From Amoebophrya sp. A120 (lineage: Eukaryota; Protista; Dinoflagellata): a DNA stretch of 64,000 nt. The stretch's first letter is position 1, and every line of letters begins with the position of its first letter. Shown piece after piece: positions 29,701 through 51,772 of the stretch. The notes under the pieces are model-generated. The model searched no databases, had not been told where the DNA came from, and saw only the letters and a list, made by a program, of their open reading frames with translations. The translations under genes were made by a program, and so were the position numbers. Where the stretch lies: contig CAJINV010000015.1 in the NCBI GenBank assembly GCA_905178155.1, forward strand, positions 581,309 through 645,308. Reading direction: 5' to 3'.

Positions 29701-32700
29701 TGCGCCTGGACAGCAATGACTGAATGCCCTGCCCCGGCGCCCGTCCTCGCTGACTCTGCCCAAGCGCGCAGCAGGGGCCCCAGCAAGCCCCTGCCCTGCA
29801 AGACCAAGCGCGGGAGAAGGGCGGGGGGGCACCAACGCGCACAGGAGCAGGGCGCACCGGCAGGCGTCACAGACGGGCCACAAAACAGACGCGCGGGCGG
29901 GGCGTGACGCGCCAGAGCCGCGCATGGCGCGGGCTGTTCTCCTGCTTCCTACCTTCCCCCGCCCACTGGCGCCCGCCCGCTGCCGCGCTTTGCGTCGTTG
30001 TGCCTAAGGCTTGCCGCCTCAGAAGCGCGGGCCCAATACGGGCGGGGTCCTCGCGCTCGCACAACGACGGGAACCACGGGCGCCATGGCGCTCCGCCTTC
30101 GTTCTTTCAACACGAAGCGGCGCAAAGGCTTGGCCCCGCCCTGCATCAGAATTTTTTTCCCTTGCCCCCCCTCTGGCGTTTTTCTTTCCCCCCTGTCAAC
30201 TCGTTAACCTTCCCACTGTGCGACATAAGCTGCGGCCTTGTATATACTATTTCCCGGGTACTGAAAACGTGTCTGTCATGCTAGTTAGGCAAAGGGGTGC
30301 CTTCTCTCATGCTAGTCAGCAACCCAATTCTGAACCCGTAGAAGCACAATGGTCGGCCTCCATTGCGTTCTCTGCAATGCAGTCGTTTTGGTGTCGCATT
30401 GCATGCATCACAAATTATTTCCACTTTGAGGATTTCCATTCTGAGGGTGTCATACGACCAGAGCCGAGAGATTCCGGTCGGACAACCTCACCGAAACTTC
30501 ATTGAACAGAGCGTTATGGATTGCAAAAGTGTCTGGGTCTGGAAGAGTGTGATAAACTTGTCATGCAGATTGTCCATGACCCATGAGGTCTGGAATGCGG
30601 GACTTAGCATGACAGACTCTGCGAGGTCTCTGCCATGCCTATCCTGCATGAGAAACTCCCTCGCAACTTGGTCGAAAGTGGACAGCTTTTGGTCATCATG
30701 CAACACAGATTTTTGCATGATTCTGATTTACCATGACAAGTTCCACTTTTCCAGACCCAGACATTTTTGCAGTTGATAGGCGTGAATCCCTTGCAACAGC
30801 TCCTGCTTCTGCTGCCGAAGTTCGAGCAGAAAGGTTTTTTTCTCCTGCTCGGAAAACGCCTTCTGCTGCGCGTCCTGCTGTGGATCCTTGTCTTTCGTTC
30901 GCGTAATATCCTTATCAAGTGTAAAAGTGTCTGGGTCTGGAAGATTCTGACACTTGTCATGCACGTTTTGCATGAGCCATGATGTCTGTGATGCATACCC
31001 TAGCAATACAGATTTCTTGAGGGCTTCTTGATGCCTATTCCGCATGACAGATGCCTTCTCAGCGTAGCAAAAATTGCATTCCCTTTCTTGGTACTCATGC
31101 AATACAGATTTTTTTGGAATCCAAATGCAGCATCACAAGTTGCATTCTTCCAGACCGAGACACTTTTACATTTGATAATCCTTGTTACCCGAGGAGGCAG
31201 AGGTCAACGACAGTGCGGAAACACCGTCGGCAGCGGCGGAGATGGCTGCGACCGCCGAAGAAGCTGCTGATGTCGCGGCTGCCGTACTACTTGTACTGTG
31301 GTCGCCGGGCTTCATGCTGTTTTTCCGTTTAACATTCCCACCGGCACCTACTGGGCCTGCACCTCCTGCAGCTCCAGATGCGCTTGCTCTTCCGACGAGA
31401 TGAGACAAAGCAAGCCCACCGCCGGACGAATTCGCGGAAAAGTTGCCGTGAACGATCTCGAAATACTGCGCAAACAGCTTGTTCTATCCAAGAATAAAAA
31501 AAATTGTAGGTGTAACCTTTTTGGAGGAACAGCATTACAAATTTGTCTGGCATGACAACAAAAACCTGTTATGCGCAGATAGTACGTGAAGACGCCCTGT
31601 AATGCACCCTACGACGCATGCCAAGCATGACAGACACAATCATCTTGCATGTTGCGCATCACAAATTTACACTAACAACGTTTTTTTCTTGGATATGTTC
31701 CCATCGTTTGCGGCGAAGGAGAGCTTCGTGAAAATCTCCAACGACGCGCGGAGCCAGACCAGCCAATATGCTGTGCAAGAGTATCGCACTCGTAGCAATC
31801 GCATGTATGCGCGACAAATCTCTTTTTCAAGGTAAATCAGCATGAGATATTCCACTTGTCATGCTGAGCAAATTTGTGATGCGATTACTACTAGTGCGAT
31901 GCTTTTGCAAGTCATAGCCAGTGGTCTCTGTTGAAGAGCGACCCAAAGCCGTGCGACAAGTCGATAAGCTTCTTCGTTTTTACCAGGTTTGCCTTGTCAA
32001 CAAAGTAGCAGTCCTGGAATAAAACCTGGGCCGACTGCTGGTAAAGCTCTTGGTGTTGACCACCTTGAAGATGGGATTCCAAAAAGGACCTCCCGGTGAG
32101 GCTCGTGCGATGAAAGAAGTCTTCATCTCGCACTAAGCAGCTGTCGGCGGTTTTTTGCAACAAAAGCGTCATCTCCTCCTCGAGATGAAAAGAACCGTTC
32201 AAAGCCAGCAGAAACTCCAGATGCTTCCACAACTTCTGCACAAACCTTAGCCTCTCCGCCTCCTCGTTGGTATGCTGCTGATGCTGCTGCGCGGCAGAGA
32301 TTTGTTGATGAGGCCCCGGCTTCGCTGTTCCACCTCCAGGATGATCTCCTGCTGCACTGGATACACTATTCAACATCGCTGGAATGACTTTCGGCTCGGA
32401 ATAGTACACTCCGTCTACTACACTGTTATTGCTCATGATCCCGATAGTCGCTGCACTTTGCGCCGCCTCTTCGTGTTCGATCCACAGCAGATTCTCATAC
32501 CCGACCACACGATGGCATGGCGTTCTCAACTGTTACACTCTCAGCTGTTACACGAATTTGTGACGCAAGAATGGTAACAATGAACGAGGCAAGCTTGCTG
32601 CTTTCGCATGACAGATTTGGCACAGATTTAGATGCTGTTTGGCCTCTCGTAGATTTGTCATGCGAAGCAGCTTAATGGTGGCAATCTTGGTGGTGAATTT

Positions 32701-35700
32701 GCATGACAAATTCATGTAACAGTTGAGAATGTAACACTTGAGAACGCCATAGATGGTCGTAGTTTTGTCGCCAGGAGAGGAGTTTCGAAACCGAGTAGAT
32801 CTATCCTGTGCAAAAGTATCGTACTCGTAGTAATTGCATTCATGCATTACAAATCTTTTTCTTAAGGCAAATCTGCATTACAAATTTCATTTCTCATGCT
32901 GAGAAAATTTGTAATGCAATTATACGAGTACGATACTTTTGCAGTTCATAAGATCAGGTTCGTCGCAACGCTGTCGAGACACTGCTTCACAGACAGTTGC
33001 TGGTCATTGTAATTTTGCTTCAGAAACCGGAAGGGGATCATCTTTCGCGCTTCCACGTCGGACACAGAATTCACCATGGCTTCGTACAAGCTAGATATGA
33101 TCGCGAAGAGGACCGAGACGTGAGAGTCGATGGTGGTAGAGGGCGCCGTGATTGTTGAGGACGGATGTTTAAAATTACTAGATGTTGAAAAAGGACAACT
33201 CGAAGAGGATGTTGGTCTACTGGATGTCACTCTCGAGAAGAACGACTGCTGCTTGCGCACGAAGTTTGGGAAGAAATCGTTGGTCATCTCCTGTTGAAAG
33301 CTGTCCCGGCCTAGAATGGGGTGAGTTCGAGTTGCCCCCGCTATCATGCGCTCGTCATGGGAGTTCGGACTTGCTTCATACCCCTCGTCCAGAAAATCTA
33401 CTTCGCCTTCACCTTCTGTCGTACTAGCATAGTACCGTAGAAACCCCACGTCTTTATGGGGTTCTCAAACGTTACATTCTCAAGTGTTACATGGATTTTT
33501 TGGCATGCAAAATTGCCATAAGCAACCGCACGACCAAGCGGCTGCGCATGACAAATCTCCGAAGGGCTAAACAGCATGGATGTCTGTGCCAAACTTGTGA
33601 TGCTCGAGTTGCAAGGTCCTCCCTTTCACTTTCGCTTTTCTTGCATCAGAAATCCACGCAACAGTTGAGAATGTAACATTTGAGAACGCCATAGTCTTCC
33701 AATAGGAATTTCGGGTCCCGGAATAGTTTCAGGAAAATGGAGTCTAGAAACGGGTTATCAAATGTAAAAGTGTCTGGGTCTGGAAGATTCTGAGACTTGT
33801 CATGCACGTTTTGCATGGGCCATGATGTCTGCGATGCATGCCCTAGCATTGCAGACTTTTTGAGGGCTTCGCGATGCCTATTCCGCATGACAAATGCCCT
33901 CTCCGCGTAGCCAAAATCGATTCCCTTTGCTGGTCATGCAATACACATTTTTTTGGAATCCAAATGCAGCATCACAAGTTCGGACTCTTCCAGACCCAGA
34001 CACTTTTGCTTTACATACGGGTAGCAGTAGTTTTCTGCTTCATCGTGTTTCAGTATATGAACGGACAAAATGCAAAACGGGACAGTAAAAAAACCAAGAA
34101 AAATCGTGATTTGTATCATTTAGTGTGTTTACAAACAACATCCGGAACGACCGACTGCTACTCCTCCGCGGATCGCAACACTCACGACTTGATCTCCTGC
34201 AAGACAAATTCGACGAAAGAACTTGGGAGCACAACCGACTGGTGTGGTTTCGGACCGCCTGCTGATCTTCGTGCTTCATCCTCCGTCAGAGCAAAGATCT
34301 CAGGCACTTTTTTGCCATGCACGAGCGGATACGACCAAAACTTGTGGTTTAATACAGAACCACAAGGATTCGCGCCAAGGGGAAACAGAGATACGAGGGA
34401 GAAAGTCGTGACTTGTTGGCGCACGCAACCATGCTGGGATTCGTTGCTACAGGTTCATTGAAAACGAAGACAAAAGGAAACAGGGTTTGCTAATAGTTTT
34501 GGTGACAACGTCCCTCGATTATTTTTGTTTGACTGTGTCTTATTTGCCTTTATCTGCAGAAGGTCTTGATGTTGAAGTTGCAACTAAAGTTCAAGTTGTG
34601 ATGTAGTGCTGCCAAAAAATAAAAATTACGACTTGCATAGGGTAACACACAACCGGGCGTCTGGGTCCTGTAAATGATGAAGCTACTTCTACTTCAACTA
34701 CATCTCGGTGTATCTTAATTTTTTTGCGAGCGAAATCGACAACGCAACACTGCTGAGAGCGAAGTGCTGACTTCCTACCTGGAAGTGAATGAAGCTGGTG
34801 CACGAGTAGACGGATCTACACTACGAACGACCGAAAAAGTTAGCTTATTGCTGTATAGAAATACGAGTGTAAAATATTATCATTAACATTCAGAATCTGA
34901 ATCAGAAATGTGCGAGAGTTTGAGTAAACTATTTCTGCAAATCATTCTACGGATTAGAAAAAGGCGCTACTGAAAATAAAACGTGGCGATGGAGTTTGCT
35001 TTTGCTAAATATAAACTGCTGATATTGATAAACTACACCTTCTGCTTCTTGCTCGGTGTGAGCTCCTCTTCATCCACTTTTTCATTTTCCTCATCATCAC
35101 CTTCCAACTGCAGCAAGTTGATCTTCTTCTCCTCCGCCTTCATCATGTTGGCCCGCATAGATGCGAACGGGTTCAGCAAGTCCACCTTGTTTTCCGCATG
35201 CGGATTGATCACCGGCGCGCTGGAGCTGGAAGAAGCGGAACTGCTGGAGGCCGCCGTGACCTCGGACACGACCTTCTTCGCCTCCTCCGTGAACTTCTGC
35301 ATGTTGGATGCCGCCGCGGCCTTGCTCCCGATGTGTTTCGAGATGTTCTGCATGTCGATGTCGGCCATGTCGCTCGAAATCATGCAGCTCCCCAGGTCGG
35401 CCATCGCCTTGAACGCTTCCTTCTCCTTCTGCAGGCTCTTGTCCCATTTCTCGCGGGCGGTCTTGCCGGTCGGCGGCTTCGTCGGGTCCTCCTCCATGTC
35501 GAAAAAAGCCGGCACCGGCTCTCTGGTTTTGAAGGGGATCTTGAACTTCACGCACAGCTGCTCGTCGCCCTCCAGGTCGAAGCGGTACGTGGCCGGCTTG
35601 AAAACGATGCTCTCCCCGTCGCCGATCGCCGCCGTGCACTTCCACACCATCTTCAACCCCTTCTGGTAAAAAGCGGCCTTGTCTTCCTCGAATTCCCCGG

Positions 35701-38700
35701 TCACGGTGATAGGGATTTCGACGCCCCGGACCTTGGTCTTCCGCGCCGCCGCAGTGTTCAGCCAGAACTCCGAGTTGACCCCCTCAATGTCCTTTTGTTC
35801 GTAAAACTCGCTGTCCAGACGAATGTTCTCCATGGACACCTTCGTCGTGATCTTGCTGCTCATCATGGAGTGCACCTCAAAAAAATCGAGGGTGGAGCAG
35901 GCCACCGCCTTCTCCTCCAGGTCGGTCAACAACTTCTTGTTCTCATCCCGCAACCGTTGCAACTCCGCCTTCTCATCGTTGTGCGCCTTCTCGATCTCCG
36001 TCGCCATTTCCATCTGCACGCTGTCGTCGTTGGAGTTGTTCCGCTTGATTTGTTTCTTCTTCGCCTCCTTGTTTTTCAGGATCGTCGCCCGCAGCTTCGA
36101 GTACTTGGATTCGCAGTCGTTAATCTGCCGGGTCAGCGCAGTTGTCGCCAACTTCCCCTGCTTGGTGTAGTACTTCTCCTCCACGTTCTCACACTTGCCC
36201 ACGATCGCGCACTGCTTGTTGTCCAACATCTGAAACGCGCCGGCATTGGCGTAATCCAGCCGCACCACCGTCTTCGCCACCAAGTTACCGCAGGCAATGA
36301 CCGGCGCGTTGAGCAGCTTGATCTGGGTCATGCCCTTGAAGGCCTGGGGGGTAATTTCCATCAACTTCGAAATCGGCGCGAGGATGAGACTGAGCCAGCC
36401 ACCCTGCTTGTTCTGCTCCTGTGCCCGGGCCTTCGACAACTTCCACGTTTCGGGGTAGGCCAGGCCACAGTCCTCCGGGGTTAGCCCCACGACGGTTTTG
36501 GTCTGCAGGTCGGTCAACTTCAGGTTGTCGCGGTCCTGTGGTCGATGAAGTGGGTTGTTGTGAGAAGGGCGACATCAGATGGCTCTACCTCTACGCATGA
36601 CAAATTCTAAATCTTCTCCTTCAAAATCAAAATTGCAAAAATATTTTAACGATGAGATTCCACGAGTCCAAAAAAAAGCAAGCAGCTATACCGTCCACAC
36701 CAACGCCTCCCGGTCCTCGTCCCACTGCTTTCCGGTCTTCGCGTTTCTGATCATCTCGGCGATGATGTGTACGAGAATTAAGTTCTTTTGTATCCAGAAG
36801 AAATAAAAAAAGAGATCAAGGTTGGGCGGGAAGTGTGCATGACAGATTTTTTTTTGGATACAAACAGACTTATTCTGCATGACAAACTTTAACTTTTACT
36901 GTGCATGATCATGATTTTGCATGACAGACTGCGACTGGAGTTGGAACATCTTCACGCGATCGCGATAAAAATTTTGCATGACAGATTTGCTGAACATATA
37001 TTCTATCTTCCCCTGCGTCGACCTTGTTCTCATTATACTCACTGCCATACGCTCCTGGACTCGCTCCGACATTCGGGTGCCCGCAGCTTCGTCTGGCCGC
37101 AGGTAGTTGTTCCGCACCAGCTTGACGATCGCTGTCATTTCCTCCACCCCGATTTTAATTCCCTTCACCCCCGCGTACAACTCCGTCTTCACAAACCCGT
37201 CCTGGCCGCACCACAGCTGCAACCACGCAGACGCCGAGTAATCCTTCACCGGGGGCGTTTGGTACTGGAGCTTGACAGCGTATTCATGAGCAAAGCAGGC
37301 GAATTGGTTCACGCTGGTTGGTGCGGTTCGAATTTGACAAGACCAACTGCAGAGCACACAGTGATCTGCAGGTGGTAAGCACCATCTTGCACAAAAATTA
37401 ATACAGACAAATTCCGGACCAACTCTGTTGAAGCAAAACACCAACGTCTGCGCCATACAACGCGGATGACGGAGCTGTGGCGAGATGTAATGTGGGGTGG
37501 GGAGTGCGTCGTGCTTTTTGTGATGCATTACGGCACTATGCAAAGCAAATCTGTCATGCGTAGAAAGCAGCACACTACCTGATGAACTGGGCATACTTGG
37601 ACTCGTCGTTCCTCGTGGAATACCGCCGCATAAAATGCGGCCAATTGGTCGACAGCCTGGTCAACAGCTTACCCAGGTACAAGAGCTCGGTAATTTCGTA
37701 GTGATTGCGCGTGGCAATGCAATAGGTCTGTTTTCGGAACGTAAATAGAAATAGGATCAGAATTTCTCATGCAGTTTTCGAAATTAATAGGATCAGAATT
37801 TCTCATGCAATTTCCTCAGGCGAATTAAACAACAACCAGAAGCGATCACAAAGACCATCGATACCCGATAAAAATCCAGCTCCTCCTGGGGGGTGGGTTT
37901 GTGCTTCAGCGTTGCCTTGTGCTTGTTCCAAGCTTTCTCGATCTGGAATGTGAAAGAAGTGCTTTGCTATTTTGCTAACTTCCAAAAACAAAACCCAAAA
38001 ACAGCTCGCATTAGTCACGTCATCATCTTCGCACTAGTCACGTAAAGCAATTTTTTTTCCTAAGTCTTGATTGCCACCGCGCTGATCGACATCCGCGATT
38101 TTGCAAAACCAGCAATAAGGACTAGCACCTGCAGAACAACAACAAAGGCCAAACGATGGCGCGCAAGAGCAGTAAAAGCCAAACCAAGAAGAGCGGGGCA
38201 AAGGCTGCGCAGAAGGCAGCGGCGGGCAAAAAACTGCAGGCGAGGCCGACAGGGCATGGCAAAGAAAACGCAGCGGATGGGGAAGAGCGCAGCGGTTCCC
38301 TGAGTATGTGCGACGCCCGTCGATTTGCAGACCAACTCGCAAAATCAGCAGGGCGGAAAAAGAAGGCCGGCGAGGCCTACAAGCTTTGCTGGCTCCTGCA
38401 ATGTTTCACGGGGCGGAGGGGCATCGACGTTCGCTCCCTCACCCTCGCGGACGTCGAGCCGGGGCGGGTGCGCATCGGAAACAGTAAGCTGGCAAAGCAA
38501 CCAAACGGCCGCGGCCACCTGAAATGGGTGCCCATCGATCCGGCGAAAGCAACGGCCACCTTCATAAGAAACCAGCTCGCGCAGATGCGCGAGGACGGAA
38601 AAAAGGCGGGCGATAAGATTTTCAATTTTGGATATGAGGCGTTCGAGCTGAAGGTGAGGCAGGTTCGCCAAACCTTCAAAACCCGGAACGCCCTCTCCTG

Positions 38701-41700
38701 CCCCGCGACGCTGATTACGTCCCACACGCCAAGGCGATCCCTGGCGTCCCACCTGTTTCGCAACAGTGTCGCGCTATCAACGATTCAACAGATTACTGGC
38801 CACGCATCTGTTGCGACCCTGATGAGATACATCAACGCGGACTACAGTTTTCAGCTGCAGGCCGCTTCGCTCGTCAAAATTTGATAAGAAACAAAACGCA
38901 AAAAGGATTTAATTTACCATGGGAAAAAGTACGAGCACTTTCTCAGCCGTAGTGGCTTCCATCCCGGTAACACCCTCGTTTTTACAATTAATGTAAGTGT
39001 CGAGAAGTCGACTGAACTCTGGCTGGTCGAGTCGTTCATCCAAGATGTTGCACCTTGGTTGTTTTTTATTTTTGTCATGCGGATCATAGGCATCTCCCTG
39101 TGAACCACCATGATACTGCGCAACTACCATGGGGAAACCGTTAACCCTATTAATCTTACAGTAAGACCGTGTCTGGGAATTTGAATGTAAAAAAATTTCA
39201 AAAACAGATGCAATACACGAGCCCGATTTTGAACGCACGGTCCCCATACTTCGCATGGAAACGGAGGAGCGCCTGAATGCTGTGATTACCGGACACCGGG
39301 CGGAGCTTGCCCTTCGACCGGAGCAGGAAGATTTCTGGAAGGTGTTATTTTTTCAAATCTGTAATGCTGTTCATTTCGAATAGAAGAGTGGCTGCATGAT
39401 GCTTTTCAACTTTTATCTGCTATGAGAATTTGTCATGCGGAAACGATTTGAAAACAGGTAAAGTACTGGCGGTGTTGTAAAAATTCCCCTTCACCATGTG
39501 GCCGAACAACTCGATCATCCACGATAACTTCCGCAACAGGTTCTTCGCGTGCATCGCGATCATGGTGAGAATCGTAGCGGTGATGAGGATATCACCGGGC
39601 TGCGTGCGGTCGTAGCACCGGTCCTCGACGAAGTCGATAAGCTGCTGCTGATTTTCCAACTCCCCGGCGTCCTTCTTCCGGAGCAGCTCGTCCGCTTCTT
39701 CTTTCGTTGGAAAGGTAGTAGGGGTTATTTCTACTTTTTCCTTGTTGGCTTCTTGCTCGTCGGACTCCAATTTGGGCCCGCCCGGAAGGAGCATATCCTT
39801 CAAAGCCTCACCGGCGTGCATGATTTTTGCAGTTTTTTTCTAGTGTGTGCAACGCCTGAAAAATTACAAAACACTCATAAAATGCTACTACTCTATCTGC
39901 TGAAGGCGTCTTTCGAAGCATGCAATCTCGCAAATCATCAACAGGTAAGAGCACATCAAAGACGGAAAATTCAAGGCCCGAAACAGTTCTTCAAGTGGTC
40001 ACGACAGGTCCCAGAGAGAGGTATTTGCATTGGAATGAATGCTGTCCAACATAGATTTTTCTGTGAATTTCACATGTTTTTCCAAGTCGCAAAAAATAGG
40101 CGAATCAAGAATCTTGGTTTTTTCCTAGATTTTTTTTCCGCGAATGGACAATTCTTGGCCAGAACCTGGCTTTTTGGCGAAGAATTGGCCAAACGGAGGA
40201 AAAAAATCAAGGAAAAAACCAAGATTCTTGATTTGGTGATTTTTGGAGGTCGTGAAAACTCATCAACTTCTCGCTAAAAAAAGGCTACCCGCGCCTCGAT
40301 CTCATCATTAATTTAGTGGTGGAGAGTTACATTCTACGACCCAACGAACGCGGAACACACGACGAAAAAACGCAAAACGAAGCCGATTTCATGGCGAGCG
40401 CAACAACGTAGGAGGCTGGTACTAGCTGTTTTATAGAAGCACTCCACGCAGTCCACTCTACATTTTTACTACTATGAAACGCCTCAAACGTTATGTCTCG
40501 GAGCAGTCGAACCGCCACTGCTACGTTCCAAAACCGAATAAACAAGCGGAGCCAAAGTTGTACTAAAATTATACAAGAAAATGCTTTGAGCCAGAGCCGG
40601 CTAAGAAACAAACTAAAAGATCACGCACCTGTGCACAAACATCAGTTGTCTTCATCACTTGACTCCTCACTGTCACTACCATCCTCCACCATCTTGCTGT
40701 ACTTCGCGGTGCTTTGAATGTACTGCTGTATCACCTGCCAGGATGCTTGCTCCTCAGCATCAGTGACATCCGGAAGGGGTTCGTTTTTGNNNNNNNNNNN
40801 NNNNNNNNNNNNNNNNNNNNNNNNNNNNNNNNNNNNNNNNNNNNNNNNNNNNNNNNNNNNNNNNNNNNNNNNNNNNNNNNNNNNNNNNNCGCAAAAAATA
40901 GGCGAATCAAGAATCTTGGTTTTTTCCTAGATTTTTTTTCCGCGAATGGACAATTCTTGGCCAGAACCTGGCTTTTTGGCGAAGAATTGGCCAAACGGAG
41001 GAAAAAAATCAAGGAAAAAACCAAGATTCTTGATTTGGTGATTTTTGGAGGTCGTGAAAACTCATCAACTTCTCGCTAAAAAAAGGCTACCCGCGCCTCG
41101 ATCTCATCATTAATTTAGTGGTGGAGAGTTACATTCTACGACCCAACGAACGCGGAACACACGACGAAAAAACGCAAAACGAAGCCGATTTCATGGCGAG
41201 CGCAACAACGTAGGAGGCTGGTACTAGCTGTTTTATAGAAGCACTCCACGCAGTCCACTCTACATTTTTACTACTATGAAACGCCTCAAACGTTATGTCT
41301 CGGAGCAGTCGAACCGCCACTGCTACGTTCCAAAACCGAATAAACAAGCGGAGCCAAAGTTGTACTAAAATTATACAAGAAAATGCTTTGAGCCAGAGCC
41401 GGCTAAGAAACAAACTAAAAGATCACGCACCTGTGCACAAACATCAGTTGTCTTCATCACTTGACTCCTCACTGTCACTACCATCCTCCACCATCTTGCT
41501 GTACTTCGCGGTGCTTTGAATGTACTGCTGTATCACCTGCCAGGATGCTTGCTCCTCAGCATCAGTGACATCCGGAAGGGGTTCGTTTTTGTATTCGCAC
41601 ATCTGTCCGCAGAGCTCCCTGCGGGCCCGCGCGATTGATTCCCGGTCCAACATCCTCCCCGTAGTTACCCTGGAAAAATTCACATCCTCCAAACTAGTCA

Positions 41701-44700
41701 AACCGCCACCACGAACCTTGCGGCGAAACCGGATCGGAATTTTTCCCGACCAGTTGCTGTTCTCCGGTCGGAAGATGATGTACAAATTTTCCAGCAGGGA
41801 GGAGTGCTTTTTTTCTGGCACTGCGTCAAACATGTTGTAGTTCTTCCAAGGGTCCTCGCGCTCGGTGCGCGACGATGCGGCTTTAGAAAAGGAGGCCCCC
41901 TTGACATCCTTGTTCTTCGCCGATTCCGCATTCCGCACAACAACATCGGCCCGGAGGTACTCTTTTGCCTGCCAGCGGTTTTTGTCGACGACGACATACA
42001 GCTGCTTGTCGTCCATCGTCCAGGAAAAATGCGCCGTGGGGTTTGAGTGCCATTTGAACATCTTCGTGAGCGTGGTCGGGGCGGGACGGGATGTCCAGTG
42101 GGCGACCGTTTTCACCGAAGGCTGCGCAAGCTGCACCGGGTATCGCTCGCACTCTCTTCCTGCGATGGTAAAAACATCCTTGAGCGGGCCGCATGCTAAC
42201 AACCATCCCCGCTGCTTCTTTGTCCTGAAGCACAAGTAGGGAAACTCCGGGTCTGGGTTGCGGCCCGTCGGAACGCGCACGACGAGATCACCAGTCTTCA
42301 CGTAGGTCATTATGTTGACCTTCGACCCGATGTGCCACTTCAACGTGGCGGGAACGTCGAAGAAGTTCTTCACAAGCTCCGGAACGACTGTAGCACCATG
42401 CTGACCAAGGGGACCACCGACACGGCCGGGCTGCTTCACCGCTGTGTTCTCGCTGTAGTCGGCCTGCGCATGCAGTGCGTGCTCGAGTGTTGGGTGGACG
42501 TACTCCCGGTCGTTCACCTTTTCCAAATCCACGAGCACCTGGTTCTCAACCACCATCTCCTCCTCCATCCCGAAAAGGTCATCTTCCTCCGCCTCGTTGC
42601 CACCCGGCGCCGCAAGTCCGCGCACCTGCCGCGCACGCTTAGCAGCCTGCTTCCCCTTTTCGTCTTTCGCGGTCGCAAATCTGTTGTCGCACAACTTCCG
42701 CACAAGTTCTCTGTTTTCCTTGTACTCGCTGAAGGACATGCTGAGCTCGTCGCCGATTTGTGCGCGAATCCCTGCGCGCGTGCACCCGAGATTTGGCGCG
42801 ACCCGTTTGTTGTTGGTGGTAGTACTGTGTCGCGCTTCTGTGACCTGCGACGACGAAACCATGAGGGGCACCAAGGGGCCGACGATCTCCTGTAGCCGGG
42901 CCGACATCGCTCCGCCGTTTGCGACCTGTTCAAGATCGGTCTTGTGCGGGATCTGGATCCAATTGAGAAAACAATCGCAGTCATCTTTGGGCAGGAGGAG
43001 CAACAACTGTGCTGATTTTTTCGCCGTATCGTCCACCGTGTCCTGCAGCCCTCGCAACAAATTCGGATACGTCCAGAGCGTCTTCTCCCGCGTCGGCAGC
43101 CGGATGAAAACATTCAACAGCAACAGCATCCCCGTGGTATCTCCCGGCCTTGTCAGCATGTGGTTCTCGATGGCCCGGAGCAGCTCGGTCTTTGTTTTGG
43201 GTTTGTGGCAGTGGTGCGCCATCTCCGCCAGTCGGACATTGGTGTAGACCTGTTTCAAGTCGGCCTTCAGCCGGTTGCTCTGCGACGAGACGATGGTTAA
43301 AGCGGCGCGAGCAGATTCACACGTTGACCAAAACGCCGGGTCCGCTGCGGACTTTTTCGCCGCTTTAGCCGTTGCGCGGTTTTCTTCTTTTTTGTTTTTT
43401 GGTTCCAGGTTCCGCAGGAGCTGCTGTATCTGGGTGCGGTTTTTCAACAAATCCTCAACACAGTCCGAGAACGTCTGCCACCGGTGGGACTGATACTCCC
43501 GGATCGCCATGTGCTGCGGATCCCCGGTCTCCGGCCCCCAAAAGTGAATCGCTTTTTGCAATTTCCCGACCTCCCCAACAAACCCGTCCCGCATGGAGTT
43601 CAAAACCTGGAGATGCTCGCCGTCCAAAAGCGAGTACTGGTGGTGCAAGCATACGAGCTGGACCACGAATGTTTGGATCAGGAGGCCGCTTTTTTGCCCC
43701 CGCGCCTTTTGCTCCTTGCGTTTGACGTTCAGCGCCCTGCTGCACGTGCGCAAAACGTTCATCGCCTTGACGACATCGCTGCCGCAGTCTGTGCAGCTGA
43801 TTATCACCAGCAAGGGGTCCGACGGGAAGTCATCCACCGTCGATCCCGGCATGGGGATCAGATCCGCGAGCAAGTGGTACAACTCGCATAGGTACGAAAG
43901 ATAACCACGCGCAACGGAGCCGTGCTTCGTCGGTGGCGGCACAAATGTTTTCACAACCGGAACCCCGTCCACCATTCGCACCAACGTGACGTCGACCGCC
44001 AGAAGCTCGGCAGAGCGGAAATCGGTCGCGTCGGGAGCTATGCGGACCACAACGAGCGGTCGCAACAACTTCGGAACCTGATCAAGCTTCGCCTCCTTTT
44101 TCGCAAGGTGTTCTGCCAACTTCGAATCCGCCTCCAGACGCATCTCACCCAGGAATCGCCCGTTGAAAACAAAAGGCTGCCAGTACTTCTGCCCCTTCGG
44201 GTTAATGTCCGTGTCGAAGATGCAGTGAAGGTCGCGCTTGGTCCGCATGTCGTAACACTTCCCGGCCAGGACCTCACTCCGCTCTGCCATCTTCCGATAC
44301 GTGTCGAGCAGCTGCTTCATGTAATCGTCCGCGCGCTGCTTCTCCGCCTTCGCTTCGTCGTGTGATTTGTTGTTTCCCAGGATGTTGAGTTTCTGCCGCT
44401 TCGCGGCTCCACCAGCTAAAGCCAACTCGCCACCACTCTCACCGCACCCCAACTCAAAAACCCTGCTTCCCGTCGGCGCTAGCATCTCCATGGTGCCGAG
44501 CACGTTGAACCTCGTCTTCTGCGTGACAATTTCGGAAAAGCCCCAAAGCTTCTGCAGTAGCGCGATCTTCTTTGTTGATGTTCCAGTACTTGTCCCGACC
44601 ACGTACTGCAAGTACTCATTTCTTTCCTTCCTGGTTTCCAATTTTTCAAATTCGGTTTGGGAGTAGTGGGCCTCGAATTCAGCCCAGACGGAGCGACGCT

Positions 44701-47700
44701 GCGCCTGTCGAAGCCGGTTTGAGTTTCATTGATTAGTAGCTCTAGCTGGAAACGGAATTATGCAGACGAGATGGATGGGAACTAGTACTAGATGTAGAGA
44801 CGCGAGCTGCATGACAAATTCAAAAAGCAGACTTGATTTTGAAAATCTAATGACGAATAGATCTAACTGTAACTGTAACCCTAAACCACAACCAGGCACC
44901 TCTCCCGTCCCATCTTCGTCATCCACTTTGCTGTTGGGGCCTCGCTTCGGCCGCTTGCGACCTGTGGAACCAAGGTCGCAGTTGGGAATCTTCAAGCCGT
45001 GCCGCTCCTCCATTTGGGACAGAACGAACGAGCGGATGGAGGAAACGCTGGCCCATCTCGCCGTTACCGCGCCGCCCGCGGTTTTTGCCCGGCGGTTGTA
45101 TGTCCGCTGGAGACTTCTCTCGCACGGCGGAGCAGTTGTTCCCTCGCCCGTGGCGGCGATCTCCTCGAGCCTGGTAATGACCTCTACTACATCGCCCCAC
45201 CCATCGATGGATTCCACCAGTTCGCGCGCCTCGCCATAATCGCTTAGCACCTGGACCGTTTTCGAAGATGCGCCAAAAACTCCTTCGTCGCTACTGGATC
45301 CGCCGGCGTTCTGGTTTTCGTCGAGGCCAACATCGACGTCGATGTCGTCGATGCCTGGTATAAAAAGATTCGCGACGTCGTCCATCTCTATGCCGGGAGG
45401 AAAGCGGCGGTATAGCACGATAGGACGGAAGACACAATGCGCACGCAGGTAAGAGGACACGACTACGCCATTTTTTTTTTTCGGTCTTCGTCTTTTAATA
45501 TCGTGGTCGAAGTCGAAGCGATTGCATGTTTGTATTGCGTAAGAAATCAAAAGCAAGACCAAATATAAAAACAATAGGAAAAGTTGTTATGGGTTTCCAC
45601 ATAATCAAAGTCAGTTTTAATTTACAATAAAGGCAAGGCAGTGTCAATGTCAAATCTATCAATAATGAAGGGCGGCTCTCTTATTTTCGTTTATCGTTAT
45701 CGCATCAGAATCAAAATGAAAAAAAAAAACTACAGGTGCGAGGCTCGGGTGCATTTCGTGACAGCAGGATGGGGAATACTACTTACGCAATCAGCTTTAC
45801 ATTCATTAGCGACAACTATGTGCGACGACAACAACTCCCAGACAGACACTAGCGACGACCATGATGCTCCAGCTCCTGTACGAAAATTGTAACGACTTGA
45901 ACTCCAACCCCCCGAAAGAGAACAACCGAAGAAAACACGAGCCCCCCTTCATGATAACGAGGTCGATTTGCAGTCGAGACCGATGTGAGCTCTGCACGTG
46001 CACGAGCACTTCCCGAGGAAAAAACACAAGTGCGCCACATAGACCAACAACTACGCCACGACACACCTGTGGTCGCTGTCGGGCTACTACTGAAGATCAA
46101 GATTGTACGCACACAGCAGCAGCCGTGAATTGTCAGGGCGCGGTGGGATCACAATCACCAAAAAATGAAGACCTACGCACATGATACGACGGACTCGGGT
46201 AAACGTCGCGCTCGTGAACGAGATGAAAACTATTTTTGGTTCCATGAAACAAAGTCAAAGCGCAAGTGCTAGCGCACTTATCACTGCGCCACCTCAGATC
46301 TCAACCTCGTACGCCCTTCGCACCAGGGGAGAACGGAAGATCTTCCCGCACGGCCACAACCTGCTCTTCCAGTTCACCACATCCACAGCAGCGTCGCATT
46401 ACAAACCTCCCCGACCGGTCGCGATACCTGATGTTGTTAGTAGTGGCTGTTGCTGGCGAAGGAGATGGAAACTCAAAAACTTATGATGAACATTTGAACT
46501 GTTGGCATTACGCATGAGATTTGAAAAAATTACGAACGTGAAGAGCAAGGCGCTCCAACTTGTTTCTTCAACATGCATGCTCATTCGGTGCTTTATGCAA
46601 ACCATTTCCAGCAACAGACACTACCAACATCATCGGCATCTGTAATGCTAATTCCAATGCGGAGCAACAGCAATAAATCTTCCCTGAGCTGCCCGGCCAT
46701 GATGTGATCCGCTCCCGGTTTCTCATTATCAACAGGCCGGCCATGTTCCTGGTCCACTTCCAACTTCTTCGGACTTTCCCTATAGGCGAATCCTTGTGGT
46801 TCTGTATTAAACCACAAGTTTTGGTCGTATCCGCTCGTGCATGGCAAAAAAGTGCCTGAGATCTTTCAATGTGGTTGCTGATCTTCGCGGGCCGAGCAGA
46901 ATGATCGCGTTCAGAAATCCGAAAAGACCATCGTCTGCACTTCCGCGTCGCAGCTTCGTTGTTGTCGATTCCAGTCGTTGTCGGTCGGCCAAGCGGTATC
47001 GTCGCGTCGCCTCACACATCGGTTTCGAACAAAGCAAAAGCTACAAATCACGATTTTTCTTGGTTTTTTTGCTGTCCCGTTTTGCATTTTGTCCGTTCAT
47101 ATTTCAGTACCACGCAGGAACTGTCCAGGGCGTAGGAGAGCAGGTGGGACAGTTCCTCGTGGAGACAAGTGAAGAAGGTGAGTGGAGCGACTTCTGTGAG
47201 TAGACCGCTATCATTTGCTGTACTGTAGTCCTCTTCTCCGTTCTTGCCGTGATCTTTTTGCGCACCTGCTGTACTAGTACCGCCACCTTCATCCACCCTA
47301 GTAGAAGCGGCGGGGGCCCCGTGCTGGTGTAGCTGCCCGGCAGAATTACGTCCGCCAGATTGATGTTCCCGCAAGCACAGGCCGGCGACGATGTCCGAAA
47401 CTTTTGCCACAACCCGCTTAGAAGTACCAGACGATGATCCACCAGCTGCACGAGAAAAGGCGCTGGAAACTGTACAGCGTCCCTCACATATCATCAGGTT
47501 CTTGAGTAAAACCGGCGTGACAAACAATTTCAGCAAAAAGCACAAATCTTCGCTGTCCATCGTGAACAGTTCCATTGCTTTTCTGTTCAGCACCACAGTC
47601 TCAATCAGCTCCAGACAAAGCAACCGGGGCCACCGGACGGAGCACAGCCAAAATCCCGGCTTGGTTTGGAGAAAGTCCTGGTTTATTTCCTGAAACTGGG

Positions 47701-50119
47701 AGGACGCGGATCGCTGCAGCAGATGGCCACTTCCGGTTGATGCTCCACTGGGGTTCGTAGAAGACGAGGACCCGCCCGTGATAAAATTCATTCCTGCGCC
47801 GAGAATGCTGGTCACTGGATTGAGCTTAGAAGCTGCTGCTGCTGCTGTAACCGCACTGGAAGTAGGTCCTTGTTGGCCAATGTTTATTCCCAAATTGAGA
47901 TTAGACCCAGCTGCGCTGCCCCCACTTCCGACTGGTGTGCCGGGGATCGAAGATGAATCTCCAGTAGTGCTTTGTTCAAGAGCAGCGGCTCTCCTACACT
48001 CCGCTATCTCCTCATCGCTGCAATCCAGCATGACACACAAATCCTGCAGGAATAAATAAAGCAGTCGGACAGCGACGTCGGTGCTGTTCGTGGGTTGTCG
48101 TGGCTTCGTGTTGCGGAATTGCGAAGTTTGAATCGACGCGGAAGCGGAAGCCAGCATGTTGGACATCTTGTTCCGGGCTGTGGGATTGAAGGGGGGCTTG
48201 CTGTAGTTTCCAGAACCTGCATTGGCTTTACCTCCTGGTACAGACGAGGTAGGTCCTCGTCCTAGCAAGCCGAATTTCGGCAAAATCCCCGAGTCCAAAT
48301 CCTGCAGCCATGGAGGTGGCGGGTGCGATATTACCGGCTTCTTGTGTCGGCCTTTTTTGCTTTTCTGGTGGCGAGAACCAGCTCCCGCCGACTCGTGATG
48401 GTTATCATTATCTGCAATACCTGGCGGGAGAGAAGAAGACTCCCCGGTGCTTCCGGAGATCGGTAGTTGCCTCCTCTGACCAGTAGAGGACGAAGTTGCA
48501 CCCGCCCCCCCTCCGTCCGTTTCAGAGCAGGTGGACTTTTCGTTATCGCTGTGTTGTGCGGTGTATGCATTGCAAAAGTATCGTACTAGTATAAATCGCA
48601 ATACAAATTTTTCCAGAAGGAAAAATGGAGCTTGTGATGCTGATTTCGCTAAGAAACAAGATTTGTCATGCATAATTTCAATTAGTACGAGTACGATACT
48701 TTTGCACAGGATACGGTGGTACCTCCGGATTCGCCCGTGGCACTAATTGGAATGTTGGTGCTGCTGGCATGAAGATTTATTTGCCGCGAAGAAGATGATC
48801 CACCAGCGTTTTGATGTTCCACCGCCTGACATGCCGTTTCTGTCAACTGCTCTGCCAGTTGCAACAGGCTCCCCCGGGCGACGCTCTGGACGACTGGGGA
48901 GGGAAGTTGAAGCAGGATGGAGAAAACCTACGTTGATAACAAGTTCAGAATTTTGGATGCAGCTGCTTGTCGCGCAAGCCTACGCTATGCGAGACATCAC
49001 ATGCACAGCATGCGGATCTACTGTGCATGCCAAATCACGGTCACTTCTCACTGAAACAGCCGAGGTAAAAAAATGTAGAGTACGTCACGCTGGCGCCATA
49101 TCAAATGCAAAAATGTAAATGTCTGGGTCTGGAATGAAGCAACTTGCCATGCCAAATCTGAATCATGTAAAAATCTGTGTTGCATGATTACCAAAAGCTG
49201 TCCACTTTTCACCTAATCGAGAGACTGTTTCTCATGCAGGATAGGCATGATAGAACTCTCACAGAATCTGTCATGCTATGTCCTACATGCCAGACCTCAT
49301 GGGTCATGGAAAACCTGCATGACAAGTCTAGCACTCTTCCGGACGCAGACATTTTTGCATTTGATACGCCAGCCTTACCTGCAAAAGCTGCTCCACCACA
49401 ACTTCCCTGCTTGAGTGGTCACCAGGCGCCTGTAGTCCGCCCCCGGGGGAAATGGAACCAGCTCCAATTGTTCCTGGTGATCTGCCTCCCCTATCGCCAA
49501 CGCCAACCGTTCCCACCATTGCCAACTCTCTCGACCCCGCGATGCGTTGCAAAATTTGCAAAATCTGCGTTGCAATGGACTCATTGCTGCCAAAAGCGAT
49601 GGCCTGCTCGCGGAGGAGGTTAATGAGTGTGATCAACTGCTCCGCGTTGCTCGCGTCGTTTTGAATTTGTGTTGCGGTGACAATATGAGAAGCTGGATTT
49701 GTCATGCTGGAAGGAGATGTTGAAACAACTGCTGGTGATGAGACCAACCCAAAGTTTTCGACCACCCGTAGCGCGATCTTGAGACACACCGGTATCATTT
49801 TCACATTCCCGGTTTCGCAGCATTTTCGCAGGCACGTCACGTAAGTTTTCAGAGCGGTTGGTGCAGTAGAACTATCGCCCTTGGTGCTCGTCGTTGTGCT
49901 TCCAGTGTCGGTCGTGAGATTCCCTATCTGCTGACAGGCGGCAATGGCTTGCTTGACCTGCTGGCTTCGACCAAAAGTCGAGCATTCCGCAAGCAACGCT
50001 TGAAAATCCTTCTCCAGCTCGTGGGCGAAGATTTGCAGGGTTTTCTCGAAAGGAGGTGCTCCGGGCCCGCCAACCCTTCCTCGGGAGGAGGAAGACGAAG
50101 AGGAGTTCGTGGCTTTCAT
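14800..50119 (-). CDS. MON2: MON2-like (Sec7/BIG-related Golgi-endosome trafficking scaffold), ~35-kb gene split by ~22 introners, canonical introns and a 13-kb transposon; 3' end approximate
   Basis: N-terminal DCB-like LEKDFQALLAEC...CLRKCCETGNVKMIPVCL...IATQILQIL; HUS-like RLLCLELIETVVLN; VNVSFTAIKYLWESAD; WLQLFRQLQISCLDPRREVRDCALKSL; KQWGQSV; C-terminal LILCEERAIRDPL. The exon joins I tested are in frame after removing the element plus one DR. Confidence 0.85.
15269..15576. mobile_element. Introner family A
   Basis: tatggaactgtcaggattgaaat / atttcaaacctgacgcttccata; DR ccgtc; join ART-GDAVQEIF in frame. Confidence 0.93.
16418..16567. mobile_element. Introner family C
   Basis: tatcctgtgcaaaagtatcg / cgatacttttgcagtgcata; DR attct. 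Confidence 0.92.
17205..17920. repeat. 17-bp tandem minisatellite (GCTCGAAATATTTCCCA)n with degenerate flanks
   Basis: Near-perfect array ~17326-17820, no spacers. Confidence 0.97.
18100..18650. repeat. Degenerate ~105-150-bp tandem repeat, about 5 units
   Basis: Recurrent core ttcccctgggtagccagaattgctgYgctaaacacagcaactcgg. Confidence 0.85.
20107..20255. mobile_element. Introner family C
   Basis: tatgaactgcaaaagtatcgcactcgtataaatgc / gcatttatacgagtacgatacttttgcacaggata; DR ggagg. Confidence 0.93.
21526..21793. mobile_element. Introner family B
   Basis: tatcaactgtaaaagtgtctgggtct / agacccagacatttttacatttgata; DR gccgt. Confidence 0.93.
22271..22597. mobile_element. Introner family H (single copy here)
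   Basis: tattgagaggaaaaatcccccctccccatatcaaa / tttgatatggggaggggggatttttcactttgata; DR acaac. Confidence 0.92.
24005..24267. mobile_element. Introner family B
   Basis: Family B TIRs; DR gcagt. Confidence 0.93.
24319..24626. mobile_element. Introner family A
   Basis: Family A TIRs; DR agaaa. Confidence 0.93.
24960..25221. mobile_element. Introner family B
   Basis: Family B TIRs; DR aatcg/aatcc. Confidence 0.9.
25285..25415. mobile_element. Introner family I (diverged)
   Basis: tattgacagaaaaaaaacc / gttttttcctggaagata; DR gctgt/actgt; related to 57364-57481. Confidence 0.75.
26015..26253. mobile_element. Introner family D
   Basis: tatggcgttctcaactgttacaccctcaactg / cagttgagaatgtaacgtttgagaactccata; DR cccag. 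Confidence 0.93.
26349..27178 (+). mobile_element. Non-autonomous Helitron-like element
   Basis: 5' TCTATTATA; 3' GTAG; GC hairpin gccccggc-gtcg-gccggggc (27148-27167) 11 nt before the end; sits between host A and T with no TSD. Confidence 0.65.
27340..28350. repeat. (CGGCCAA / CGGCCAAATCGCAAA / GGGAAACGGCCAAC)n minisatellite spanning an N gap
   Basis: Direct inspection either side of the gap 27574-28275. Confidence 0.9.
28640..29390. repeat. ~18-bp purine-rich minisatellite (GGGAAGCACGGGGAAAAC)n
   Basis: Direct inspection; N gap 28979-29078. Confidence 0.9.
30515..30778. mobile_element. Introner family B
   Basis: Family B TIRs; DR agcgt/ggcgt. Confidence 0.9.
30913..31177. mobile_element. 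Introner family B
   Basis: Family B TIRs; DR atcct. Confidence 0.93.
31485..31695. mobile_element. Introner family J (single copy here)
   Basis: tatccaagaataaaaa...gtgtaa / ttacac...ttttttcttggata; DR tgttc. Confidence 0.88.
31767..31916. mobile_element. Introner family C
   Basis: Family C TIRs (diverged); DR gccaa/gccag. Confidence 0.85.
32516..32751. mobile_element. Introner family D
   Basis: catggcgttctcaa / ttgagaacgccata; DR gatgg. Confidence 0.92.
32802..32950. mobile_element. Introner family C
   Basis: Family C TIRs; DR agatc. Confidence 0.93.
33455..33693. mobile_element. Introner family D
   Basis: Family D TIRs; DR gtctt; join LLED-VGFLRYY in frame. Confidence 0.93.
33756..34017. 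mobile_element. Introner family B
   Basis: Family B TIRs; DR cgggt; join YCYP-FLDSIF in frame. Confidence 0.92.
34056..34115 (+). repeat. Left TIR of the 13-kb element
   Basis: tatgaacggacaaaatgcaaaacgggacagtaaaaaaaccaagaaaaatcgtgatttgta. Confidence 0.96.
34293..34373 (+). repeat. Left 81-bp internal inverted repeat containing a 13-8-13 palindromic site (34337-34370)
   Basis: Exact reverse complement of 46786-46866; core aaaacttgtggtt-taatacag-aaccacaaggatt. Confidence 0.95.
35033..36517 (-). CDS. Transposon cargo ORF, at least 494 aa, unknown function (coiled-coil middle, acidic tail, C-terminal PSKKQKV NLS-like motif); probably has upstream exons at ~36690-36790 and ~37050-37340
   Basis: Long open frame with strong GC3 bias; no family recognised. 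Confidence 0.7.
   Translation of the reverse strand: MTDLQTKTVVGLTPEDCGLAYPETWKLSKARAQEQNKQGGWLSLILAPISKLMEITPQAFKGMTQIKLLNAPVIACGNLVAKTVVRLDYANAGAFQMLDNKQCAIVGKCENVEEKYYTKQGKLATTALTRQINDCESKYSKLRATILKNKEAKKKQIKRNNSNDDSVQMEMATEIEKAHNDEKAELQRLRDENKKLLTDLEEKAVACSTLDFFEVHSMMSSKITTKVSMENIRLDSEFYEQKDIEGVNSEFWLNTAAARKTKVRGVEIPITVTGEFEEDKAAFYQKGLKMVWKCTAAIGDGESIVFKPATYRFDLEGDEQLCVKFKIPFKTREPVPAFFDMEEDPTKPPTGKTAREKWDKSLQKEKEAFKAMADLGSCMISSDMADIDMQNISKHIGSKAAAASNMQKFTEEAKKVVSEVTAASSSSASSSSSAPVINPHAENKVDLLNPFASMRANMMKAEEKKINLLQLEGDDEENEKVDEEELTPSKKQKV
38156..38884 (+). CDS. Tyrosine recombinase (phage integrase/Xer/Fim-like catalytic domain), 242 aa
   Basis: Complete R-K-H-R-H-Y set: FTGRRGIDVRSL (R), GNSKLAK (K), SHTPRRSLASHL (HxxR), TGHASVATLMRY (H...Y). 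Lys/Ala-rich N-terminus. The only clear plus-strand gene in the window. Confidence 0.93.
   Translation: MARKSSKSQTKKSGAKAAQKAAAGKKLQARPTGHGKENAADGEERSGSLSMCDARRFADQLAKSAGRKKKAGEAYKLCWLLQCFTGRRGIDVRSLTLADVEPGRVRIGNSKLAKQPNGRGHLKWVPIDPAKATATFIRNQLAQMREDGKKAGDKIFNFGYEAFELKVRQVRQTFKTRNALSCPATLITSHTPRRSLASHLFRNSVALSTIQQITGHASVATLMRYINADYSFQLQAASLVKI
38909..39821 (-). CDS. Putative multi-exon cargo gene of unknown function, convergent with the recombinase
   Basis: Coding-like segments 39460-39821 (MHAGEALKDMLL...) and 38909-39150, separated by AT-rich intron-like stretches. Confidence 0.4.
40089..41590. other. Apparently identical ~700-bp duplication on both sides of a 100-N gap; probable assembly artefact
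   Basis: 40089-40789 matches 40890-41590; ORF translations are identical. Confidence 0.8.
40103..40233. repeat. Long imperfect palindrome downstream of the transposase (also at 40905-41035 in the duplicated block)
   Basis: aatcaagaatcttggttttttcct...aggaaaaaaccaagattcttgatt arms. Confidence 0.85.
41444..45385 (-). CDS. hAT-family DDE transposase, predicted 2 exons (45385-44900 + 44704-41444, ~1248 aa)
   Basis: hAT motif order: VRIAPDATD (D1), SCTDCGSDVVKAM (D2, cf. TDNASNMVKA), VCLHHQYSLL (CxxH), HRWQTF (cf. TRWNS), SSSQVTEARHS (E, cf. SSAxSERxFS). Phase-0 GT-AG intron 44899-44705 with a CTACTAAT branch-like motif. Confidence 0.85.
46786..46866 (-). repeat. Right 81-bp internal inverted repeat containing the 13-8-13 site (46789-46822)
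   Basis: Exact reverse complement of 34293-34373. Confidence 0.95.
47042..47101 (-). repeat. Right TIR of the 13-kb element
   Basis: tacaaatcacgatttttcttggtttttttgctgtcccgttttgcattttgtccgttcata. Confidence 0.96.
48564..48713. mobile_element. Introner family C
   Basis: Family C TIRs; DR cggtg. Confidence 0.93.
49099..49366. mobile_element. Introner family B, apparently inside a canonical GT-AG intron
   Basis: Family B TIRs; DR cgcca; minus-strand CAG|GTAAG donor just outside at ~49378. Confidence 0.88.
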
Positions 50120-51772
50120 CCTTTAAATGATGTTTGTGCGTGTTTCTGTGATCTGGTAGAAAATTATGTTTCAGATGCACGACAGGACCACAGCTTCTTC
50201 GACGCAGTCACGACGACAACAGGTAGGTCCTCACACTCATCAAGTTGGTCATCTTCGCTTGGACATCTTCAACATCCTACACCGGTCCTTCCTTAACGAA
50301 GAAGACTACAAGCTGTTTGCAAGAACCTTTTTGGCATCTACTTCATCGTAGATGTTGTATTAGCGTTGTAGCGTCACGATCTAGGTAGGTGTACTCGATC
50401 GATTCGTGTGTAGTTATGATCACCAGTAGAAGATCGCCCGACCACGACCATAGGGTGGAACACATATGGAGAAGAAATTTAAGTACCCACAGGCGCAAAA
50501 CTACCGGGCGTGAACACCAGCATACCTGCATGCTGCTGGAATAGTCAAGTCACTCTTCATGGTCTGTCGTATTCTGATTCATTTTTTCCAAAAAAGTGTA
50601 AAAGAGTTGTAAAACCGCCGAGAAGTTGTCTGCGCACCGTTGAATAAATCCACCCCTCACGACGACTGTGGAAACCAAATAGATACAAGGCATTCTGCTC
50701 CTCTTTGGGTCAGTCGTATTCATTTTGGTTTCTCAGAAGTAAATGAAGATGCTGTTAGCCTTAGCTGTAGAGATCATGTGAATCAATGATAGCTAGTGAA
50801 ACTGTGTGAAAGCAATTGAAAATTTTCTGACACCGTTTTCTTCCTCTTCCCTTGGGGAAACTAGCATAGAAAGCCCTTTCCTGACAAGATGTTGAGATAA
50901 CTTTGATGTTGTTCCTAAAAATAACGCGGAAGTGTTGACGGCACGACACCTCGCTCCGTTCATAAGGATGCATCTATGCAGACACGAATAACTCAAAAAA
51001 GTCAAAACTTTTCAGATTCATCAATGTTTTTAGTAATGTGCATCTTCTAGGGAATAATTCAAGCGGAAGCGTCGATAGTCGTGCTGCTGGTATCTGTTCA
51101 TTGAAAAACTCTTGTGCTGTCTGCAGGAGAGAGTCGTGCATTTTTGCTTCATACACCAGGCATGCGCATGTTTGAAAAACGAAATTATTTTTGGCTCCGG
51201 TTTCAACTTCTAAATCGTGCGATGTCGTAAGTATGTCTCCCGCGCAAATAAAATCTTTGCAACGAGGTAGCTGCGAGGTTCCGGAATCGTCGGCGTCTTG
51301 ACGATGAGACGACAATTTTTTATTTGGCGTTCATCGCAAAGTTTCTGAACCATAAAAATGATGTAAAACAACATGCTGACCCGATCGTCATGAAGATGAC
51401 GGTGGGACGAACCACTTGCAGGAACCTACAAAGTAGCCACTGCCTCACTATGCTGGACATAAGGTGGAAGAAGATATTTCTGTAGTGGTTGTACAAAATT
51501 CATTTTTGTTGAGCGATGATAATTATAAATCCCCAAACGAAATTTTTCGTATTCAACATCGTTGCAGCTCCTGCAACTTTCAGTTTTACTTTGTCTTCTT
51601 AATCGTTATCGACATTCCGTGGTATCGACGCATCGATATTTTATTAGCTGCTGCAACTACAGCGCCTGCACCTGCTCGTACTGCAAGTTCAGTGATAATT
51701 GATTTATTTTTTGTATACACAACATATTTCCGCTTACCCTCCACAACCTCATCCTGCTTCCAGTCCTCTCTA

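Follow-up and report, generated by a model that had tools for sequence, protein, structure and literature searches.

Does the central segment of a transposon that carries both a transposase and a tyrosine recombinase (YR) invert, and does the direction of host transcription then decide which of the two enzymes is made? The question is raised by a 64,000-nt stretch of the dinoflagellate Amoebophrya sp. A120 (contig CAJINV010000015.1, positions 581,309 to 645,308, forward strand; hereafter the window, whose coordinates are used throughout). According to a preliminary description, every host gene, the transposase and the cargo genes lie on the minus strand and the recombinase alone on the plus strand; if expression depended on the co-oriented host cluster, inverting the core would swap the sense and antisense enzymes. 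Here, we describe the element as a composite transposon that has moved as a unit in A120, with a transposase likely of the hAT/MULE clan acting by cut-and-paste, a YR that would flip the core at inner sites, and genes that would be read from their own promoters, a reading that, taken whole, we lean towards.

A 12.24-kb transposon in a host exon

The element spans positions 34056-47101, between two 8-bp copies of a target-site duplication (TTTCAGTA); its features are collected in Table 1. Positions 40088-40789 and 40890-41591 are a single 702-nt stretch doubled by the assembly around an N gap. Because one 11,664-nt X1 contig spans the core, gap and duplication are an assembly artefact, and the corrected element is 12,238-12,244 nt long (12.24 kb). 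The same X1 contig differs from the window by five single bases and a 6-nt indel (36219, 40588-40663, 42911, 43614 and 43878), reflecting either two element copies that differ or assembly errors. The outer arms of about 75 nt are 92% complementary to each other, within an imperfect terminal symmetry of about 330 nt, over which the two ends align at 73%. Along the plus strand come cargo A (minus), YR (plus), cargo B (minus), a hairpin and the transposase (minus).

Around the element lies a Mon2/Sec7/BIG1-like gene, whose Pfam matches (DCB, HUS and HDS) are weak and below curated cut-offs, all in the expected order. A 793-aa host frame opens on removal of the element with one duplication copy and of four introners with theirs, and keeping both copies of the 8-bp duplication breaks the frame at 34053. 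The element was inserted into a host exon.

At least two near-identical insertions are present in A120, and the whole unit has moved. One X4 contig leads from the right arm into 628 letters of flank absent from the window. At 47102, a loose X1 end is a mixture of two contigs that could be explained by the left flank seen in the window together with another flank, bearing a predicted 8-bp duplication at the second site; this reading assumes alphabetical tie-breaking, and we infer the second-site duplication from it. X1 depths are 79.8 for the core, 78.1 and 100.1 for the arms, 164.4 for the inner repeat and 43-50 for host contigs, values that by the tool's own warning are not copy numbers. The core thus lies at about 1.6 times host depth, a non-integer excess that the second insertion explains.

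The transposase frame covers 1093 aa (41444-44725), with a likely first exon from 45385. HMMER found 22 homologs, and a word-based homolog search with the transposase found nothing. In an alignment of the query with 11 homologs (12 sequences, some rows being gapped or divergent at conserved columns), the conserved positions are D204, D285, C331xxH334, R387-W388 and an E near 604; about 320 residues separate the second D from the E. The 8-bp duplication matches hAT elements, as do the DDE triad, CxxH and a W in the insertion region, the latter being equally true of MULE; the roughly 330 nt of imperfect terminal symmetry and the 8-bp duplication fit MULE, for which there was no profile match. 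On these motifs, the duplication and an Atlas lead of 0.82-0.83 (below 0.9), the enzyme is likely a member of the hAT/MULE clan, nearest to hAT. A single-sequence fold of low confidence (predicted local distance difference test score, pLDDT, 36.6) gave weak RNase H-fold rows only; with this model Foldseek returned nothing at E<=0.001, and VIA returned helical-bundle rows alone, all under Z 8.

Among ten transposase homologs looked up, nine representatives and one cluster member are genes of strain AT5.2. Two of the four AT5.2 YR genes are paired with a transposase gene two gene numbers away (g1758/g1760 and g2071/g2073), the spacing seen in the window, and the other two are without such a neighbour among the homologs looked up; by our own arithmetic such a pairing has a chance of about 0.002 for each YR. 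In three AT5.2 gene models the transposase is fused with cargo B, and in two of these with cargo A as well; the order matches that of the window, and all parts share a strand. Stretches homologous to cargo B come after the transposase in P0012, P0014 and P0035, and cargo A homology is found in P0012 and P0014. YR sequence occurs in none of the three, which fits an opposed or absent YR. The shared layout points to a family of YR-cargo-transposase modules with linkage conserved in AT5.2.

Variant copies of the terminal repeat (47042-47101, with 2-4 differences) occur in several X1 contigs and one X3 contig, and one is followed by sequence resembling window 34824-34837; they are related, perhaps non-autonomous elements. 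Contigs of probable RNA start near 46137-46144 and run through the right arm, with no convincing open reading frame (ORF) in window 46137-47102.

Table 1. Features of the composite transposon and its insertion site, in window coordinates.
Feature	Position	Strand	Basis or remark
Left target-site duplication, 8 bp	34048..34055	none	sequence match to right copy
Left outer terminal inverted repeat, TAT start	34056..34129	none	92% complementary to 47028-47101
Left inner repeat, 81 nt, identical to right	34293..34373	none	81-nt X1 repeat node, twice core depth
lox-like site, putative YR crossover	34341..34366	+	9-bp arms, asymmetric 8-bp spacer
Cargo A, spliced	35033..37594	-	equals published model GSA120T00026165001
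Candidate divergent promoter region, cargo A/YR	37993..38155	none	two GTCACGT motifs (38014, 38037)
Tyrosine recombinase, catalytic domain after basic low-complexity tail	38156..38884	+	PF00589, E 2.9e-13
Cargo B, likely two exons	38909..39821	-	tail-to-tail with YR, 24 nt apart
A+T-rich hairpin, 73-nt arms	40092..40244	none	z -9.4; unique; at element midpoint
N gap and duplicated 702 nt, assembly artefact	40790..41591	none	X1 contig spanning core
hAT/MULE-clan DDE transposase (likely), likely two exons	41444..45385	-	conserved motifs in homologs
Right inner repeat, 81 nt	46786..46866	none	identical and inverted relative to left
Inverted lox-like site in right inner repeat	46793-46818	inverted relative to left site	sequence
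Right outer terminal inverted repeat	47028..47101	none	pairs with left outer repeat
Right target-site duplication, 8 bp	47102..47109	none	sequence match to left copy
Upstream exons, interrupted Mon2/Sec7/BIG1-like host gene	47110..50122	-	continues left of 34048

The recombinase and its candidate sites

The YR is 242 aa long, and its catalytic residues R88, K111, H190, R193, H216 and Y225 are invariant in all eight aligned sequences. It thereby carries the R-K-H-R-H/W-Y residues of the tyrosine recombinase superfamily, and its predicted structure (pLDDT 79) has the integrase catalytic fold, with best matches to the catalytic domains of HP1 integrase, XerA, XerH and Cre. NCBIfam models of XerA, XerC, XerD and integron integrase match below cut-off, no FimB/FimE model is among the NCBIfam matches, and Pfam gave no GCR1_C or DUF3504 domain. 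YR homologs are 31-62% identical (six of seven at 51-62%) and transposase homologs 21-30%, so the YR is under constraint. A metagenome scan with the YR alignment found two loci, one of which (L001) is a distant bacterial-type integrase locus; viral contigs held no match to the YR, the transposase or the site.

Inner repeats lie about 240 nt inside each element end and are 100% identical, compared with 92% for the outer repeats. Each 81-nt copy holds CTTGTGGTT, an asymmetric 8-nt spacer and then AACCACAAG (9+8+9, 26 bp); a comparable palindrome arose in 12 of 20,000 shuffles of the repeat. The two sites are inverted and share an identical asymmetric spacer, as in the YR inversion systems of the Flp/FRT and Fim type, in which likewise one YR and two inverted sites bound an invertible segment. 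The present segment differs in belonging to an integrated transposon, not a plasmid, and in holding all the genes, the YR included, and not a promoter alone. FimB and FimE are, like the YR here, small and made up of a catalytic domain only. With an intact YR and identical inverted sites on which it would act, the 11.65-kb core is probably invertible, on grounds that are mostly anatomical.

Contigs from X3-X5, all of one sample whose RNA nature is a guess, bear on the same point. The guess is supported by an X3 contig whose match stops precisely at the acceptor of cargo A (36536), leaving 15 letters unmatched; a contig end at 37820, 5 nt short of the predicted donor, was dropped as splice evidence, and the 36536 break alone was counted. 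X3 follows the reference path from the right core end into the right arm. In X4 (records 12-14) both core ends enter the repeat and the right arm alone leaves it, and in X5 (record 18) a single contig passes from the left core end (90 letters) through the repeat into the right arm. Such joints of both core ends to the right arm fit inversion and are suggestive only. Cover by X3 contigs was absent over the YR, as was cover by X3-X5 contigs over the transposase and the host exons, and neither was counted as evidence.

An alternative source of the inner repeats would be a nested insertion: a second transposon ending in these repeats would have inserted at the palindromic centre of a fold-back element of 480 nt, its transposase would bind the palindrome in the repeats, and the YR would not invert the core. 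The first letters of the identical repeat, a 6-bp palindrome and then CAGG, could indeed be taken for a target duplication, and the inner repeats are 100% identical where the outer ones are at 92%. We nevertheless hold this improbable, for the repeat node in X1 comprises all 81 nt and no second flank is listed on its outer side, arms and core are raised to similar depth, so that the whole unit moved together, and the conserved YR and directional 8-nt spacer are left unexplained.

Flp/2-micron-style amplification, which the preliminary description had offered as its own alternative, supposes that the element excises and circularises and that YR inversion during replication yields many copies per initiation. 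A YR with two inverted sites is indeed the 2-micron layout, a core depth of 1.6 times host is not a whole number, and the strong A+T-rich hairpin could be an origin. This account is very unlikely: the second insertion accounts for the raised depth, so amplification is not needed for it, and no Rep or partition gene was recognised in the element. The hairpin, if an origin, is equidistant from both sites, a poor placement for such amplification, whereas the origin of the 2-micron plasmid adjoins one recombination site. No end-to-end circle joint was found among the joints listed, which is not evidence against circles; contigs drop rare forms. Both the centre of the corrected element and the point midway between the two lox-like sites are 7-11 nt from the hairpin, a central symmetry noticed after the fact; origin, terminator and recombination enhancer are candidate roles. 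An Rfam scan gave 11 hairpin matches, all below gathering thresholds, and nothing else.

Gene orientation, promoters and the host strand

The one-strand pattern of the preliminary description holds. Among ORFs of at least 90 aa outside tandem-repeat zones, Pfam matches at E<=0.01 were found in 7 of 109 on the minus strand (one strong) and 1 of 119 on the plus strand, the YR being excluded from the plus set and 8 additional minus-strand ORFs being scanned outside the 109; the sole plus-strand match is a sub-threshold Claudin_3 over an introner. A codon model, likewise excluding tandem-repeat zones, placed 38 of the 41 best non-overlapping ORFs (7 of the 41 being training exons) on the minus strand, leaving on the plus strand the YR and two weak ORFs (11014-11259 and 45810-46181). 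Such a host pattern is ordinary in A120, where co-oriented blocks hold 98.5% of the genes (PMC7789003), and a single opposed gene within a transposon is not unusual in itself.

Layout suggests how that gene could be expressed. The YR is head-to-head with the spliced cargo A, an arrangement that a divergent promoter inside the element would fit; between the YR start and that published for cargo A there are 562 nt, and between the YR start and the last X3 piece about 165 nt. Cargo A is identical over the shared part (100%) to the named A120 protein P0011 and may extend upstream to about 37992. The cargo genes had no PHROG or significant Pfam match, and cargo A no usable Atlas match. A sigma-70 promoter scan was empty, which is not relevant to a eukaryote. 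Two 28-nt direct repeats lie upstream of cargo A at 37750-37813, inside a possible GA-AG intron.

Under a host-driven toggle, as the preliminary description had it in outline, host read-through and trans-splicing would release whichever genes are sense; a sense YR would flip the core, which would put the YR itself in antisense and the transposase and cargo in sense, so that every insertion ends co-oriented with its host block. Host pre-mRNA would indeed run across the element, given its place within a host exon; three of its four genes are on the host strand, and transposase, cargo B and cargo A are co-oriented in the AT5.2 fused models. The start codons of YR, transposase and cargo B each have an AG a short way upstream, X4 connects both core ends to the right arm and on to foreign flank, and a spliced leader is present on at least 37.8% of the transcripts of A120 (PMC7789003). 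Yet the same paper reports that Amoebophrya genes within one block differ in expression and gives no evidence of polycistronic co-regulation, the head-to-head YR and cargo A suggest internal promoters, and AGs at such positions would be expected whichever model holds. For one insertion only is the element known to be co-oriented with its host, with a 50% probability by chance. An estimate of host direction at the second insertion from 30 letters (difference 1.06, about 1.7:1 for plus) was rejected, as the sign came out wrong for a control flank of known direction. The MMETSP transcripts include homologs of the YR and of the transposase alike, which does not discriminate between the expression models. 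The parts for inversion proposed by the preliminary description are thus in place (intact YR, inverted lox-like sites, outer arms with their own duplication) and the probable-RNA contigs are compatible with it, but dependence on host-driven expression finds no support, and we consider the toggle unlikely. In a stronger form, the YR would be in sense just when the element has landed the wrong way round, a single flip would switch it off and leave transposase and cargo aligned with the host, and the 12-kb unit would also be spliced out of host mRNA as a giant introner; this we judge quite unlikely. Were the toggle real, the element would be a first example of mobile DNA that senses how it lies relative to a host gene block and corrects its own orientation.

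In the composite reading that we prefer, the transposase would move the 12.24-kb unit by cut-and-paste through the outer arms. The YR would bind the two dyads, cross over within the 8-nt spacer and flip the core in a single copy; in tandem copies or circle dimers, where sites stand in direct repeat, it would resolve multimers. Genes would be read from internal promoters, with the YR on the plus strand owing to a divergent promoter region common to YR and cargo A, and inversion would be either incidental or a means of regulating read-through at the arms, and not a host-driven switch between sense and antisense enzymes.

Several points weigh against this composite reading. The identical 81-nt repeat exceeds the 31-letter contig words, so contigs cannot resolve orientation, and a simulation yields the same contigs when cargo A RNA merely ends inside the repeat, a window that tip clipping could widen. 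The 9-bp arms are shorter than those of dif, lox and FRT (11-13 bp), and the YR has a predicted disordered basic tail in place of a core-binding domain. The transposase class is drawn from motifs, duplication and a sub-0.9 lead, and the protein has no Pfam, PDB-sequence or significant fold match, including to hAT (Dimer_Tnp_hAT, Hermes) and MULE. For the AT5.2 YR genes, gene numbers and not strands were read. Promoters of the element's own are proposed from gene layout and not from a mapped transcription start, and at the second copy probable RNA extends over the right end, so transcription over the boundary, as a toggle would have it, does occur.

Known systems and the surrounding window

Tec1/Tec2 of Euplotes combine a DDE transposase with a YR for which resolution of intermediates has been proposed (PMC3212892), and Sardine and Thon of Paramecium have a YR, an IS630-Tc1 transposase and palindromic terminal inverted repeats with an oriented inner region (PMC3464196, PMC5405496). 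Like the present element, these are alveolate transposons with several ORFs, hypothetical cargo among them, and long terminal inverted repeats with internal palindromic structure. They differ in being of the IS630-Tc1-mariner type, with short D-E spacing and TA duplication, where the A120 element has a likely hAT/MULE-clan enzyme with a long insertion and an 8-bp duplication; the latter also stands apart in its 12-kb size, a discrete 9+8+9 site in both ends and no known germline/soma elimination in its host. MarCry-1_FO of Fusarium oxysporum, a Crypton joined to a Mariner (PMC3212892), shares terminal inverted repeats, target duplication from a DDE enzyme and a YR inside, and differs in its transposase class and in that the YR here matches Xer and phage integrases. 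Cryptons themselves have no terminal inverted repeats, short direct repeats and a YR as mobiliser, unlike the present element with its terminal repeats and 8-bp duplication. From hAT and MULE transposons the element differs in carrying a YR and inner recombination-like sites, and in having no Pfam hAT/MULE match.

In literature that lacked most subscription journals and Repbase, we found no report of a hAT/MULE-type transposase with a YR, of a YR or inner sites in hAT/MULE elements, or of this element; a hAT-like partner and explicit inverted sites appear to be new. The genome paper reports putative transposases only in A25 (PMC7789003), and one supplement held no match to the element, which supplies an apparently autonomous transposase in A120, where that paper reported none. 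A family table in PMC12130899 has integrase terms in Polarella rows only (12 of 14 supplements). With likely target sites visible and intact, recent transposition and relatives in a second strain, the inversion question is directly testable, and the element offers a recombinase of compact size (242 aa) together with a candidate site of 26 bp that is new.

Introners occur window-wide (for example 33756-34017 and 48564-48713), with exact 5-bp target duplications in 19 of 27 candidates and 8-bp duplications in none, a sharper rule than the 3-5-nt repeats described for A120 (PMC7789003). They share with the element exon insertion and TAT...ATA ends with a nearby A run (TAT...AAA in the window's repeats; PMC7789003). 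Given these duplication lengths, the element's transposase is unlikely to mobilise them directly. Raw RNA reads X7 and X8 match introner repeats only (99 and 1 reads) and are probably from another strain.

Elsewhere in the window, the minus strand encodes a Rad51-like P-loop protein and a class I/II aminotransferase (51776-54234 and 374-1021). A 17-nt tandem array with an internal dyad occupies 17200-17950, and long arrays of 9-, 14- and 18-nt repeats surround two N gaps at 27300-29900, apparently inside the interrupted host gene.

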